A stretch of DNA of 64,000 nucleotides from an uncultured Chloroflexia bacterium (lineage in GTDB: Bacteria; Chloroflexota; Limnocylindria; Limnocylindrales; CSP1-4). A program made the translations under genes and the position numbers. The notes beneath the pieces were generated by a model. The model had not been told where the DNA came from. It saw only the letters and a list, made by a program, of their open reading frames with translations, and searched no databases. The DNA lies in assembly GCA_963746845.1 (NCBI GenBank), contig CAVVCZ010000001.1:192001-256000 (forward strand), given 5' to 3'. Shown in pieces: positions 53,521 to 58,241 of this stretch. Position 1 is the first letter of the stretch. Each line of letters starts with the position of its first letter.

Positions 53521-56181
53521 TCAGCCGTGCCCGTGGCCGGCGTGCTCACCGCCGTCCGCGCCATGGCCGGCCGTCAGGGCCGGGACGTGGCCGTTGCCGT
53601 TGCCGTCGTGCCCGTTGCCGGACCCGTCGCCGAGCTCCTTCGCGACGTACGCCGCGACCGATGCCGGGAGCATCGGCAGCAGCCGGGTCGGGGCGACGGG
53701 TCGGCCTGCGGCGGCCGCCCGCTCGGCCCAGTCGCGCTCGCGCCGGATGTAGGTCATCTCGGTCTCCTGGTCGACCGTCGCGAGGGCGATCAGGTCGACC
53801 ATCGGATCGACGCGCGAGGTGTGCGAGAGCTCGAAGTCGCCGCCGTCGCGCAGGGCGTCGTACGGGCACGCGTCGACGCAGATCCCGCACAGGATGCAGC
53901 GGCTCTCGTCGACGTCGTACGTCTGGAGGACGCGCGGCTTCGGCATCAGGGCGCCGGTCGGGCAGGTCTCGGCGCATCGGCCGCACGACACGCACGGGGT
54001 GTCGTTGAGGCTCATGTCGAGCGGCGTCGTGACGAGGGTGTCGAAGCCGATCCGCATGAAGTCGTAGCAGGCCGCCCCGACGACCTCGGAGCAGACCTGC
54101 GCGCACCGGCCGCAGTCGATGCAGCGCGAGGGCTCGCGCAGGATGAACGCGTGCGAGTCGTCCCGGATGTAGTCATGGTTGATGCCCGTGAACCGGTTCT
54201 CGGTCACGCTCCGGTAGCCCGCTCCCTGGTGGTTCTGCGGCTCGAGCGTCTGGAGCGTCGTCCCGTACTCGATCCCGAGACGGCGGAGGTCGCAGAACCC
54301 GATCGCCTCGCAGGTGCACTGGAGACAGCGCGTCGACTCCGCGACGACCTCCTCGCGGGTGTACGGGATCTCGTACTCGATGTAGCTGTCGTTGCGGACG
54401 CTCGCGGGCATCGCCTTCAGGCGGTAGCGGGGCTCCTTCTGCTCGCTCGTGAACGGGACGATCGAGAGGAACTCGGGCTGCGGCTCGGCGAGCTGCTGGC
54501 GGGTCTTGATCTCCGACAGGTCGAGGCCCTTCAGGAAGGCGTCGACCGCGTAGGCGGACCGGCGGCCCTCGGCGACCGCCTGGACGACGGTCGCGGCGCC
54601 GACACGGACGTCCCCGCTCCCGAAGACGCCCGGGCGGTCGGTGAGGAAGGTGACGGCGTCGGCCTTGAGACGCCTGTTCCGGGTCGGCTGCGGGCCTTCG
54701 GAGCCCGGCCCGATCCAGGTGAGCTCCGGGCCCTGGCCGATCGCGAGGAGGACCCGGTCGCACGGGATGACGAACTCGGTCCCCGGGGCCGGCTCCGGCC
54801 GGCGCCGCCCGGACGCGTCCGGCTCGCCCGGCCGGTTCCGGATGAACTCGACCCCGGTGACCTTGCCCTTGGCGTCGGTGATGACCCGCGTCGGGCCCGC
54901 CTGGAAGATCGCCTGGACGCCTTCCTCGATCGCCTCGTGGACCTCGTTCGCCGCCGGCATGTCCTTCATGTCGCGGCGGTAGACGAGGGTCACCTCGGCC
55001 GCGCCCTGGCGGATCGAGGTGCGGCTGCAGTCCATCGAGGTGAACCCGCCGCCGATGACGACGACGCGCTTGCCGGCGTGGCCCGGGTAGGGCAGGCCGA
55101 GGGTCGCCGTTCGGAGGTACTCGAGGCCGTCGAGGACCTCGGCCGCGTCCTCGCCCGGCACGCCGAGCTTGTTCGTGTCGTAGCAGCCGATCGCGATCAG
55201 CACGGCGTCGAAGCCCTGGTTCTGGAGGTCGTCCAGCCCGAAGTCCTTGCCGAGCTCCGCGTTGCAGACCATCTTCCCGCCGAGCCGGGTCACGGATTCG
55301 TACTCGGCCTCGAGGACCTCGACCTTCGGCAGGCGGTACTGCGGGATCCCGTAGCGGAGCATCCCGCCGGGCGCGGCGTCGCGCTCGAAGACGGTGACGT
55401 CGTGGCCCGCGATCAGCAGGTAGTACGCGGCGGCCATGCCGGCCGGCCCGGAGCCGATGACCGCGGCCTTCCGGCCACTCTTCGGCTGGACCTCGAACGG
55501 GATCGGCGGGTCCTCGCCGTCGTCCAGCATCATCTTGATGACCTGGTCGCCGGCGTAGCGATGGGAGTCGCGGATCGCGATCGCCTCGTCGACCTCGTCG
55601 CGCCGGCAGTGCTCCTCGCACGGCGCCGGGCAGACCCGGCCGAGGACGCTCGGGAACGGGATCGTCCGCTTGAAGATCCGGGTGGACTCGCGGAAGTTCG
55701 CCTCGGCGTTCGCCTTCAGGAAGCCCGGGATGTCGATGTGGCTCGGGCACTTGTTCTGGCAGGGCGGCAGGCAGTAGGCGTTGTGGTCCGAGAAGATCAG
55801 CTCGAGGTTCGTCCGGCGGAGACGGCGGACCTCCTCGGTCTGGGTCTTGACGACCATGTCCGGCTCGCACGTCCGCGAGCACGAGATCGGCGGGTGCTCC
55901 TCGCCCGCGACCTCGACGACGCACATCCGGCACGCGCCGAAGCCGGGCAGCTTCGGCTCGTAGCAGAGGGTCGGGATCTCGATCCCGTTGTCGCGGCAGA
56001 CCTCGAGGATCGTCTGCCCCTCGAAGCCCTCGACGACCCGGCCGTCGACCTCGATCCGGATGCGCGGCGACGACTGCGGCCGTTGCGGCGACTGGGTCGT
56101 GATCAGCCGCTCGGCGAGGCTGTCGTCGAACGGCTCGAGCGTGTTCGTTTCGACGTAGGGGCGCGGCAGCAGGTCGGTCAT
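53521..56181 (-). CDS. 886-aa hybrid: NuoG N-terminal Fe-S domains + GltD-like FAD/NAD(P)H oxidoreductase + NuoI C-terminal half
   Basis: [98 protein letters not shown]. Confidence 0.88.
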
Positions 56182-56188
56182 CGTCTCG

Positions 56189-57556
56189 TCACTGAACGGC
56201 TGCGCTGGCGGCGACCGCGATCGGCCGGCAGACGCCGGCCGGGCACGAGCTCCGCAGGATGTGCTCGTCGAGCTCGGACTGGAAGTATCGCATCCCACTC
56301 GCGAACGGAAGGGTCGCCAGCCGCTCGTGGGCGCACAGTCCGGACCCGACGATGTCGTTCGACAGGTCGGCCAGGAGATACAGGTCGGTGGGCTTCGGGA
56401 CGCCGGTCGCGATCCGGTCGCCGATCTCGCTGATCCGGCGCAACCCGATCCGGCAGGGGATCGTCTTGCCGCACGCCTCGTCGGCGCAGTAGCGGGTCAG
56501 GAGCCGGGCGAGATCCACGATGCAGGCCCGCCGGTCCGCCGCGACGATCGAGCCGGAGCCGATGTGGGCCCCGACCGCGCGGAGCGCGTCGAACTCGTAC
56601 GGCGTGTCCGCGAACTCGGGCGGCAGGATCCCGCCGGACGGCCCACCGACGAGGATGGCCTTGAGATGCTTCTCGGCGTCCTTGCCGGTGAGGGCGAGGA
56701 TCTCGCGGAGCGGCGTCCCGATCGGAACCTCGGCGACGCCGGCACCGTCCGGCGTCCGGACCGACACGAGGATCGTGCCCGGGCTGCCCTTCGCGCCGAT
56801 CGCCGCGAAGGCCTCGGCACCGTTGACGAGGATCCACGGCACGGCGGCGAGGGTCTGGACGTTCTGGACGACCGTCGGCCGGCCGAACAGGCCCTTCGTC
56901 GCGGGCTGCGGCGGCCGCTGCTCGGGCTGGCCACGCTTGCCCTCGAGGGCCTTCAGGAGGACGGTCTCCTCGCCCAGCATGTAGGCGCCCTGGACCGGCC
57001 GGACGGTGAGGTCCATGACGTGCCCGGAGCCGAGGACGTCGTCGCCCGCGAGGGCCGCGTCCACGAGCCGCTCGATCGCCGTCTCGAGCGTCCGGATCGC
57101 ATCGACGGCCTCCGCCCGGACCGCGATGATCACCTCGTTCGCGCCGATCGCCAGGGCCGCGATCAGCGCCCCCTCGAGCACCGCGTAGGGGTTCCGCTCC
57201 AGCAGCGCGCGGTCCGTCCGGGACGACGGATCCGCGCCATAGCCGTTCGCCACCACGACCTTGCGCATCGCCGAGCGGTCGCCGCTGCCGGTGCCGGGCG
57301 CGACCACGTCCGGAGCCGGCGCGTTCGCCGCGACGCGCCATTTCTCGGCGGTCGGGAAGCCCGCTCCGCCGCGGCCGCGGAGTCCGGAGGCGGCGATCGT
57401 CGCGATCGTTCCGGCCGAGCCCAGGTCGTGCATCGCCTTCGCGAGTCCCTCGAAGGCGCCCGCCTCGCGGGCGGCGTCGAGATCGAGGGGATCCCGGTTG
57501 CCGCGCGGCAGGAGGATCGCCGGCCAGGACCGCGCTGTGCGGAGGATCGTCGTCAT
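56189..57556 (-). CDS. nuoF: Degenerate NuoF-like subunit
   Basis: SGLRGRGGAGFPT, GAY..GEET..ALEG, GGPSGG retained; other motifs altered. Confidence 0.85.
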   Translation of the reverse strand: MTTILRTARSWPAILLPRGNRDPLDLDAAREAGAFEGLAKAMHDLGSAGTIATIAASGLRGRGGAGFPTAEKWRVAANAPAPDVVAPGTGSGDRSAMRKVVVANGYGADPSSRTDRALLERNPYAVLEGALIAALAIGANEVIIAVRAEAVDAIRTLETAIERLVDAALAGDDVLGSGHVMDLTVRPVQGAYMLGEETVLLKALEGKRGQPEQRPPQPATKGLFGRPTVVQNVQTLAAVPWILVNGAEAFAAIGAKGSPGTILVSVRTPDGAGVAEVPIGTPLREILALTGKDAEKHLKAILVGGPSGGILPPEFADTPYEFDALRAVGAHIGSGSIVAADRRACIVDLARLLTRYCADEACGKTIPCRIGLRRISEIGDRIATGVPKPTDLYLLADLSNDIVGSGLCAHERLATLPFASGMRYFQSELDEHILRSSCPAGVCRPIAVAASAAVQ

Positions 57557-57578
57557 CGCGGGATCGTCGTCATCGCGT

Positions 57579-58241
57579 TCAGGCCCGCGCCTGGCCGGCG
57601 AGGGAGGCATCGAGGCCCGCGAGGTACGTGCTCTCGCGGCCGGCGCGTGCGGCGGCGGTCGCGGCTGCGAGGGGCTCGGCGGCCGGCGGCTCGAACCGCA
57701 GGTGGCGGTAGTAGGTCGCCGTCCCGTAGATCATCGCGTACCAGGCACCGGTCCTCTGGCTGATCAGCTTCAGCGCCGCGACGGGCAGGTGGCCGTACTC
57801 CGCCTGGGTCGCGTCGAGGATCTCGAGCATCCGCTTGGGGTCGAAGTCGTAGCGCTCGAGGATCGCCTCGAGGGCCTCGGGGTGGATCGGGTCGAAGTGC
57901 GCGTAGGCCTGGTCCGGCACAGGCCGGCCGGAGCGCCGGAGCGCCAATTCGTCGCGCCGCTCGCCGTAGGTCTCCGGGGCGCCCCAGTGGATGTGGTACC
58001 GGCCCTTCGTGTCGACACCGCCCATGTCGATGCACTCGATCGGGCAGGCCTGGGCGCACTGGAAGCACGTCTCGCACTTCAGCGTGCCGTACTCGTCGTA
58101 GAGCAGCTGGAGCCGGCCGCGGAACTTCGGCGGGACGTCGAGCCGCACCTCGGGGTACTTGATCGTCGCCTTCGGCTCGAAGAACTTCTTCAGCGTCAGG
58201 CCCATGCCCTTGACGATCCCGAGACCGGGCAGCGGGATCAT
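57579..58241 (-). CDS. Fusion of NuoI N-terminal half and NuoE N-terminal helical domain
   Basis: GMGLTLK.FF..TIKYPE..FRGR..KCETCFQCAQACP then ILERY..EIL..Q.EYGHLP..IYGTATYY; ATGA overlap with nuoH. Confidence 0.85.
   Translation of the reverse strand: MIPLPGLGIVKGMGLTLKKFFEPKATIKYPEVRLDVPPKFRGRLQLLYDEYGTLKCETCFQCAQACPIECIDMGGVDTKGRYHIHWGAPETYGERRDELALRRSGRPVPDQAYAHFDPIHPEALEAILERYDFDPKRMLEILDATQAEYGHLPVAALKLISQRTGAWYAMIYGTATYYRHLRFEPPAAEPLAAATAAARAGRESTYLAGLDASLAGQARA

Follow-up and report, generated by a model that had tools for sequence, protein, structure and literature searches.

A complex I operon from the Limnocylindria in which nuoI is divided between two fusion genes around a Stn/Nfn-like electron-input cassette

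The locus described here raises the question of where NuoI, a subunit of complex I, is encoded when three other genes occupy the place between nuoH and nuoJ, and what these genes bring to the enzyme. The locus lies in a window of 64,000 nucleotides (positions 192,001 to 256,000 of contig CAVVCZ010000001.1, assembly GCA_963746845.1, an uncultured Chloroflexia bacterium), and all coordinates refer to this window unless a contig or another locus is named. The region has 70% G+C and numerous shadow open reading frames (ORFs), and a position-3 G+C of 0.94-0.98 marks the real frames. Placement of Pfam domains revealed the minus-strand order nuoA-B-C-D-H-[I(N)::E']-F'-[2Fe-2S/GltD/NuoG-type clusters::I(C)]-nuoJ-K-L-M-N, in which I(N) and I(C) are the two halves of NuoI and E' and F' are NuoE-like and NuoF-like. 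The operon comprised 13 genes, two being fusions, and Pfam matched every subunit of the membrane part and the Q-module within it (A, B, C, D, H, J, K, L, M and N). The same order had been proposed from the letters alone in an original prediction, and it was borne out. We assign a probability of roughly 0.78 to the reading that a stnABC-like operon was inserted in the nuoI gene of an 11-subunit-type complex I, that the two NuoI halves rebuild clusters N6a and N6b, and that the flavin adenine dinucleotide (FAD) of a GltD-like site is the main entry for the reduced nicotinamide adenine dinucleotides (NAD(P)H). The span 53521-58241 is bounded by the stop codon of the large-subunit gene and the start codon of I(N)::E' and holds exactly three genes, which are listed here with their parts.

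57579-58241 (-): I(N)::E', 220 residues (TIGR01971 model 1-66; PF01257 2-65 of 145; PDB NuoI and NuoE-like chains)
58041-58076 (-): CxxCxxCxxxCP motif of I(N), with C56, C59, C62, C66 and P67 (alignment)
57672-57863 (-): E' helical domain, residues 127-190 (PF01257 2-65 of 145; PDB chains 9bov_C, 8oh5_A and NfnC 9n5u_C)
56189-57556 (-): F', a flavoprotein with a NuoF/StnB core, 455 residues (PF01512, E 1.9e-36; PF10589, E 3.9e-18)
53521-56181 (-): large subunit, 886 residues (NF009454, E 8.4e-162; TIGR01971 model 71-115; Pfam)
55789-56061 (-): 2Fe-2S domain of the large subunit, as in the NuoG N-terminus, with C73, C84, C87 and C101 (PF13510, E 4.9e-19)
54517-55773 (-): GltD-like module with two 4Fe-4S sites and FAD and NADPH Rossmann folds (PF14691, Fer4_20; PF07992, Pyr_redox_2)
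53959-54327 (-): NuoG-type clusters, a CxxCxCx5C motif (C619-C630) and a two-motif ferredoxin (C687-C697, C730-C740) (PF22117, Fer4_Nqo3)
53782-53934 (-): I(C), YDVDESRC...CP...DFEL, with C762, C765, C768, C772, P773, F783 and E784 (TIGR01971; NuoI chains)

The NCBIfam model of NuoI, TIGR01971, has 121 model positions and a curated cut-off of 113.05 bits. I(N)::E' matched its positions 1-66 (52.5 bits, E 3.4e-14) and the large subunit its positions 71-115 (48.1 bits, E 7.7e-13); the halves are therefore complementary, and the two stretches were present in order and colinear between nuoH and nuoJ. As evident from the solved NuoI chains, the halves also fell on complementary parts of known structures, namely residues 6-68 and 86-125 of 2fug_9 (Thermus), 24-88 and 92-131 of 7awt_I (E. 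coli), and 17-81 and 94-139 of 8qby_I. An alignment with five canonical NuoI sequences from the phylum placed the split point between the GERY loop and the xxFDVNxxRC strand. These comparisons agreed with what had been read from the sequence beforehand: the gene after nuoH carries the NuoI N-terminus and a single CxxCxxCxxxCP motif before it passes into the NuoE helical domain (TIGR01971, PF01257), the gene before nuoJ ends in the second half of NuoI with an odd, third ferredoxin motif (TIGR01971 71-115, alignment), and the two align to complementary parts of the NuoI model, the solved chains and the NuoI proteins of the phylum.

The two CxxCxxCxxxCP motifs never occurred in one polypeptide here, as one was present in each of the two proteins. 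The four motif cysteines and the proline of I(N) were invariant in 11/11 aligned I(N)::E' proteins, and all cluster cysteines of the large subunit, including C762, C765, C768 and C772, were invariant in 10/10 aligned sequences, together with P773, F783 and E784. Each half contained exactly four invariant cysteines in its single motif with no further invariant cysteine nearby, and the alignment revealed that the remaining ferredoxin motifs of the large protein were already paired. In 2x[4Fe-4S] ferredoxins, each cluster is held by three cysteines from one motif and the last cysteine from the other motif. Since each polypeptide has a single motif and further invariant cysteines are lacking, both clusters would be ligated across the chains, if they are formed, and the ferredoxin fold makes it very likely that N6a and N6b are ligated across two polypeptides. 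From the sequences, we infer that the halves would reassemble into one NuoI-like ferredoxin domain. To our knowledge, no other natural 2x[4Fe-4S] ferredoxin domain is split over two different proteins. The likeness to NuoI/Nqo9/TYKY (NDUFS8) extended over the N-terminal region, both CxxCxxCxxxCP motifs and the FE(L/F) tail, all of which align, and the place of the gene between nuoH and nuoJ was kept; the difference is that the protein is divided here over two polypeptides, each joined to a subunit of the input module.

We also searched the genome (3.56 Mb in 12 contigs, 92% complete) for an intact NuoI. A six-frame search with TIGR01971 found nothing over the cut-off in this genome, and its two best matches were the two halves; the two-motif ferredoxin domain of the large protein itself gave a weak match of 23.5 bits, and the other matches covered only part of the model. 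In tblastn searches, nuoB, nuoC, nuoD, nuoH and nuoJ were each found in single copy. The operon is the sole, genuine complex I of the organism. All of 121 genomes of the class that were at least 90% complete had half-matches, and an intact NuoI over the cut-off was present in only 3 of them (0/45 in the family of the window and 0/5 in the second family of the order). The suspicion that an intact nuoI might stand elsewhere thus came to nothing in this genome and in 118 of the 121 near-complete class genomes, a count that includes three unpublished genomes and becomes 115/118 when they are left out.

The architecture is old and widespread, and this genome is no special case. Of 24 other genomes of the same genus, 22 contained the I(N)::E' fusion, the two misses being 71% and 78% complete, and so did 16/16 genomes of the second family of the order, which are about 1.1 Mb in size. 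A scan of the phylum used a draw of 401 genomes and lists 150 of 542 matches, so that its counts are lower bounds; four families of the class had matches that spanned both domains in at least 23/23, 4/4, 16/16 and 2/2 genomes, and among the matches listed such matches were also present in at least 13 genomes of three families outside the class. In total, 533 relatives were confirmed among species genomes, and locus detail was taken from the best 80 of these 533, which therefore give no information on distant taxa. A profile search of 1.84 billion cluster representatives returned 55 proteins at E <=1e-30 and 1510 at E <=1e-10. By their NCBI titles, the class group was Candidatus Limnocylindrales or Chloroflexota and the outside group was Ktedonobacterales; as for a cultured carrier, the cluster-member listings gave only names of metagenome-assembled genomes (MAGs).

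The layout of the operon differed between lineages (L and G numbers are our labels for loci and genomes). In the families that we label f1, f2 and f3, in-frame maps gave A-B-C-D-H-[I(N)E']-F'-[G'I(C)]-J-K-L-M-N, where [G'I(C)] is the large-subunit gene. The genes of family f4 were distributed over a pair of operons, of which L126 carried A-C-H-J-K-L-M-N and L023 carried B-D-[I(N)E']-F'-[G'I(C)]. The Ktedonobacterales type contained B-[I(N)E']-F'-[G'I(C)] (L025, L026, L027, L029), with an A-C-D-H operon elsewhere that has no nuoB between A and C (L031-L033) and a second nuoJ elsewhere; genomes of this type additionally carry a canonical 14-subunit operon with an intact nuoI (L120, L121). A third lineage, found on the metagenome contigs L128, L130 and L140, had the order A-B-C-D-H-[I(N)E'F]-[G'I(C)]-J-K-L-M-N, in which I(N)E'F is one protein of 607-616 residues, and one of its cluster members is titled 'Thermoleophilia bacterium'. 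In 12/12 loci carrying both fusions, the N-half stood before and the C-half after the cassette, colinear with nuoI. The same fusions were thus seen elsewhere, as had been suggested as a check, in families of the class, in Ktedonobacterales-labelled genomes and in the third lineage. Mis-assembly, which had been named as a possible source of the split, is excluded by its presence in 22/24 genomes of the genus, 16/16 of the second family, four families of the class and two further lineages.

For the nuoB-(nuoD)-cassette operons of f4 and the Ktedonobacterales type, we also considered a soluble hydrogenase-like enzyme. This candidate was rejected because NuoD lacks the NiFe CxxC motifs and NuoB carries CC, and further because matching A-C-(D)-H(-J-K-L-M-N) operons were found elsewhere in the same genomes. 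Some additional features of these loci were observed. In f3, about 1.6-2 kb of DNA lay between the large-subunit gene and nuoJ (L022:13913-15550, L030:13791-15770). In f4, an NDUFAF7-type methyltransferase (PF02636, L023:14331-15419) was encoded two genes downstream of the B-D-cassette operon, a position that fits a link to complex I assembly. Among metagenome proteins, P0303 and P0356 were fusions of the NuoH C-terminus with I(N)E', which could be gene calls merged over the ATGA at which the I(N)::E' start codon overlaps the nuoH stop in our window, and P0346, P0306 and P0284 were I(N)E'::F fusions; of the metagenome fusion forms, only I(N)E'F was confirmed on contigs.

To what kind of enzyme does the cassette belong? 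The best solved relatives of all three cassette proteins were 9bov_A/B/C, StnABC (8oh5) and NfnABC (9n5u), ahead of the NuoF and NuoG chains of complex I. The large subunit matched 9bov_A with E 1.6e-161 (residues 42-773 to 4-699 of 1178), StnC 8oh5_C with E 4e-139 and NfnA 9n5u_A with E 1.2e-136, and its NuoG-type region 621-783 aligned to residues 117-273 of 2fug_3. The GltD motifs GxGPAG (FAD), GGGxTxxD (second Rossmann fold) and YRR were invariant in 10/10 large subunits and also aligned with StnC, which binds FAD and NADPH according to the Stn structure paper. At its C-terminus, the large subunit of this genome carried a tail rich in His, Gly and Asn (...GHGHG; 53521-53650, -) that was absent in nine other aligned homologues and might be metal-binding or disordered.

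F' gave its best PDB matches with 9bov_B (E 6.7e-95) and 8oh5_B (7.7e-92), and the NuoF chains of complex I followed at 3e-79 to 2e-59. Residues 19-446 of F' aligned only to 111-526 of the 584 residues of 9bov_B, so that F' lacks the N-terminal 2Fe-2S and C-terminal 2x[4Fe-4S] domains; PF01512 and PF10589 were its only Pfam domains. An upstream ATG at 57610 offers an alternative in-frame start. Past the loop for flavin mononucleotide (FMN), F' contained an insertion of ~15 residues (about 57230-57290, -), PDVVAPGTGSGDRSA, which was not seen in nine other aligned F' proteins. E' matched 9bov_C, 8oh5_A and NfnC 9n5u_C. Its NuoE-type 2Fe-2S domain is truncated here, where PF01257 is matched only at positions 2-65 of 145; in f2 and f3 the domain is kept with two of four cysteines missing, and it is absent in f4 and the Ktedonobacterales type. 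The ligands of the 2Fe-2S cluster N1a were absent from E' in all forms examined. In complex I, the helical part of NuoE contacts NuoF. As E' is the helical part only, the two fusions would anchor F' on one side of the composite NuoI and G' on the other.

The order E-like, F-like and NuoG/GltD-like equals stnA-B-C, the large subunit shares the layout of a 2Fe-2S domain, an inserted GltD and NuoG-type clusters with StnC and NfnA (E 1.6e-161 to 1.2e-136 over the solved relatives), and the cores of F' and E' match as well. In contrast to StnABC and NfnABC, however, the FdhF-like C-terminal domain of StnC is replaced here by NuoI(C), the F-like protein has neither the N-terminal 2Fe-2S nor the C-terminal 2x[4Fe-4S] domain, the E-like protein has no 2Fe-2S cluster, and the module is joined to a membrane complex I, whereas Stn and Nfn are soluble. 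Regarding the features of the Bfu family, an StnC/NfnA-type large subunit was found, and a full BfuB and a 2Fe-2S BfuC were not. The Stn structure paper assigns bifurcation to the clusters around the FMN and treats the branch with clusters C1 and C2 of StnC, which it locates C-terminally in the NuoG domain, as a dead end. Since the module lacks the clusters by which the Bfu bifurcation core is defined, it is read here as not bifurcating. By analogy with the N4/N5-to-N6a route of complex I, the direction that matches the Stn C1/C2 branch may here lead into I(C).

Comparable modules have been proposed elsewhere. Schut et al. 2022 (PMC9304861) predict two membrane-bound enzymes, Nuo-Bfu and Mbh-Bfu, whose Bfu genes lie centrally in the cluster, and a Bfu-type module encoded mid complex-I-like or Mbh-like gene cluster is what our locus shares with them. 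In their description, the Nuo-Bfu complex consists of 14 separate proteins, and BfuABC replaces NuoEFG between D and H, whereas the cassette here stands between H and J; the word "NuoI" does not occur in the text of PMC9304861. The Mbh-Bfu of Dehalococcoides likewise encodes a GltD-like flavoprotein (locus L119), but there the GltD-like protein and a 114-residue NuoI-like protein are separate, unsplit genes. At this locus (L119, G073:C1:698000-716000), we observed NuoL-like and NuoH-like genes, a small ORF, a NuoE-like ORF, a 640-residue BfuB, a 197-residue 2Fe-2S protein, a 461-residue GltD-like protein, a 359-residue ORF and the 114-residue NuoI-like protein, that is, the same building blocks in separate genes. 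A split NuoI in the Dehalococcoides Mbh-Bfu was considered and rejected, as the I(N)-like and E-like matches were in separate ORFs and the NuoI-like ORF was unsplit. The mbx-like operons of Degli Esposti 2015 (PMC4758237), compared by their published description, also have a GltD-type NAD(P)H flavoprotein at the position of NuoI; NuoI is described as substituted there, whereas both halves are kept here along with a full E/F/G-type cassette.

The host of the cassette was identified from the remaining subunits, which are listed here.

62453-62830 (-): nuoA (PF00507, E 3.9e-29), the C-terminal 100 residues of ORF 62453-63745; start approximate
61719-62438 (-): nuoB (PF01058, E 5e-27), with GCPPRP and the tandem CC of cluster N2; start approximate
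61171-61731 (-): nuoC (PF00329, E 7.7e-36); start approximate
59933-61171 (-): nuoD (PF00346, E 7.7e-85), with QHPSTHG and EY kept; start approximate
58238-59620 (-): nuoH (PF00146, E 4.7e-104)
52963-53511 (-): nuoJ (PF00499, E 4.4e-34)
52577-52900 (-): nuoK (PF00420, E 4.1e-22); start approximate
50572-52566 (-): nuoL (PF00361, PF00662)
48888-50561 (-): nuoM (PF00361)
47413-48882 (-): nuoN (PF00361); start approximate

Tandem cysteines in NuoB and a NuoD without NiFe ligands are diagnostic for complex I. Reading of the two sequences revealed no CxxC motifs of the NiFe kind in NuoD and tandem CC in NuoB, which places the Q-module with complex I and not with the hydrogenases. The layout A-B-C-D-H-(I)-J-K-L-M-N, with D beside H, is that of the 'ancestral' 11-subunit complex I (Nuo11), from which the variant differs in having its own flavin input module within nuoI. 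In a NuoH tree (IQ-TREE, 14 rows), eight variant NuoH proteins grouped together (66/70) and joined the NuoH of Dehalococcoides-type Nuo11 (83/83), apart from four NuoH proteins of the 14-subunit complex (Nuo14) of the phylum. The f4 variant paired with the Ktedonobacterales-type variants (88/92), a grouping that matches their common broken-up operon layout. Because it contains one Nuo11 row and a very long outgroup branch, this tree gives only a hint. NuoD was likewise closer to the Nuo11 copy (43% identity) than to a Nuo14 copy of the phylum (37%). The original prediction had placed an E/F/G-like cassette inside the nuoI of an 11-subunit complex; the insertion, the position of D beside H and the NuoH tree agreed with this view, and the kinship of the cassette was revised, from NuoEFG to Stn/NfnABC (Bfu). 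One insertion of an stnABC-like operon into nuoI predicts the colinear order I(N)-E-F-G-I(C) in three lineages, which separate fissions and fusions would produce only by coincidence.

Around these genes, we also observed that residues about 324-398 of NuoH form an additional hydrophobic stretch of ~75 residues, long enough for two helices. This stretch aligned in the second family (L021), and in f3, f4 and the other lineages the tblastn match broke at 323/399. Beyond nuoN, the following gene is probably 46941-47342 (-), and the ORF 44053-47097 (+) of 1014 residues, which has no Pfam match and codon-position G+C values of 0.91/0.50/0.69, is a shadow frame.

The architecture, the complementarity of the halves, their conservation and distribution, the lack of an intact NuoI and the homology of the cassette are firm. 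Under the reading that we prefer, a three-gene operon like stnABC or nfnABC would have landed in nuoI, within the loop that separates its two cluster motifs, and given rise to two fusion genes. The NuoI halves would co-fold into one 2x[4Fe-4S] domain, in which each cluster receives three cysteines from one polypeptide and one from the other, and the input module would be covalently tied on both sides to the Q-module. Electrons would pass from NAD(P)H to the FAD of the GltD site, through the two GltD clusters and the NuoG-type clusters to I(C)/I(N) (N6a, N6b), and then through N2 in NuoB to quinone. The FMN of F' may be a second entry, whose state would differ between lineages, and the module would be non-bifurcating. 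The more far-reaching statement, that this is a widespread natural complex I with N6a and N6b each ligated from two polypeptides and with a captured, formerly soluble Stn/Nfn-type module that makes it a proton pump driven mainly by NADPH at a GltD-type FAD and not by NADH at FMN, is put forward tentatively, at somewhat less than even odds.

Several observations weigh against our preferred reading, and some of them lend themselves to other explanations. Neither half reaches the NuoI cut-off (52.5 and 48.1 versus 113.05 bits), and the I(C) stretch alone scored best in phmmer on polyferredoxins, with repeated matches to the bare cysteine motif. The lone motifs might then be unpaired, with I(C) a polyferredoxin-like extra site, I(N) degenerate and another small ferredoxin serving as NuoI, for which small 2x[4Fe-4S]-like ORFs with about 50-55 bits on TIGR01971 in some family genomes could be candidates. 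However, these ORFs lie below the cut-off and none was seen in this genome, only NuoI chains aligned to the isolated I(C) through its DFEL part, neither half has a partner in cis that could complete a cluster around its four invariant cysteines, and the halves are colinear around the cassette in three lineages; we rate this explanation as very improbable. An assembly artefact or a set of decaying pseudogenes could point to nothing beyond one Ktedonobacterales-type genome, G106, which has a partial second copy with nuoB and I(N)E' only and no F' or large gene adjoining (L028, G106:C36, 9457-10644) as well as a NuoD-like frame with two stop codons (G106:C7:36231-36968), and these may be decaying paralogues. 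The frames of our locus are open with a GC3 of 0.94-0.98 as in the neighbouring genes, identical junctions occur on long contigs of many assemblies, 533 relatives were confirmed, and the cluster ligands are invariant across classes in the aligned proteins, so that an artefact is refuted by the conservation data. Three soil RNA libraries and one DNA run gave contigs of relatives (85-99% alike) that covered 29-30 of 30 bins of the region, and some bridged the junction of F' and the large gene (56109-56503) and the linker from I(N) to E' (57834-58037, 57903-58109); RNA-library contigs can hold DNA and are thus no proof of transcription. No sequencing run contained more than 0.16 of the sampled words, and gaps in cover and differences in depth were not used as evidence. 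It also counts against our reading that the taxon labels were taken from MAG titles and that the monophyly of the variant NuoH is weakly supported (66/70, in 14 rows with a single Nuo11 representative).

The donor and its site of entry leave more room for an alternative. With the same architecture, NADH at the NuoF-like FMN could be the main donor and the GltD module auxiliary, that is, structural, regulatory or a minor entry for NADPH. F' does retain the GRGGAGFPT loop and GEET, all four N3 cysteines are present in f4 and in the Ktedonobacterales type, NADH oxidation by another complex I is not available to most genomes of the class, and the fused F of the third lineage has canonical NA(D/N/A)EGDPGSFKDR, SCGKCxPCRLG and LCGLG motifs, so that the FMN site looks canonical by sequence in this Thermoleophilia-labelled lineage. 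In contrast, the N3 motif of F' in this genome reads CGKT..C, with Thr for the second Cys, versus CGKC..C in StnB-type chains, and its NADEGDPG segment reads NGYGADPS, changes that raise doubt whether FMN/NADH chemistry survives there and thus count against F' even as the second entry of our scheme. The second N3 cysteine is Thr or Ala in f1-f3 and Cys in f4, the Ktedonobacterales type and the third lineage; the acidic residues of NADE are variable in this genome and across f1-f3, and the NADE motif is not kept in the Ktedonobacterales type. The NuoF-like site thus looks eroded in the order of this genome, as judged from these motifs. The absence of N1a in every form examined and the invariance of the GltD FAD/NADPH motifs also speak against NADH at the FMN as the main donor, and the canonical Nuo14 beside the variant in Ktedonobacterales-type genomes suggests a different job for the latter. 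Moreover, this genome encodes the membrane transhydrogenase PntB (contig C5:403015-404394, 594 bits), so that a connection between the NADH and NADPH pools is possible without this complex and NADH could pass via NADPH. On balance, we consider NADH entry at the FMN as the main route unlikely, while taking it seriously. Two further points count against our preferred reading: a use of NADPH in place of NADH at the GltD site is a suggestion from homology, and contig C6 (468913-471623) holds, apart from the nuo operon, a 612-residue NuoE-NuoF fusion followed by a HoxU/NuoG-N-terminal-like gene, with a partial copy at the start of contig C10; this pair could be a soluble diaphorase. The module might also still be of the Bfu type, bifurcating or confurcating, for example with NADPH or NADH plus ferredoxin as donors to quinone, in the manner suggested for Nuo-Bfu. 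Its nearest solved relatives are indeed the bifurcating Stn, Nfn and Hyd complexes, and membrane-bound Nuo-Bfu and Mbh-Bfu have been predicted (PMC9304861). However, F' lacks the N-terminal 2Fe-2S and C-terminal 2x[4Fe-4S] domains of StnB/BfuB, E' lacks a 2Fe-2S cluster, and the Stn paper sets bifurcation at the FMN with exactly the clusters missing here; we consider such a module improbable.

Taken together, the locus encodes a variant of complex I that is real, conserved and widespread, and that combines a split NuoI with an NAD(P)H module derived from the Stn/Nfn type. Searches of open-access full text and bioRxiv, supplementary files aside, found neither a split NuoI nor this operon described. 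Its carriers are labelled Limnocylindria and Ktedonobacterales and are mostly metagenome-assembled, and most members of the class have no complex I besides it. Annotation pipelines name the pieces 'ferredoxin', 'hypothetical protein' and 'NAD(P)H-dependent oxidoreductase subunit E', and metabolic reconstructions would therefore score nuoI as missing. In the prevailing view, complex I arose by the joining of modules, and the capture of its NADH module is otherwise known only as a finished product. Here, the scar of a capture is readable, as an operon lies inside a subunit gene, both junctions are kept as fusions, and integrated and dispersed lineages coexist; the recruitment of an input module thereby becomes directly testable. 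If the more far-reaching statement given above is true, the locus would represent an independent, datable second acquisition of an N-module; our preferred reading predicts a 2x[4Fe-4S] ferredoxin domain made of two proteins and a respiratory enzyme with a GltD-type entry for NAD(P)H.

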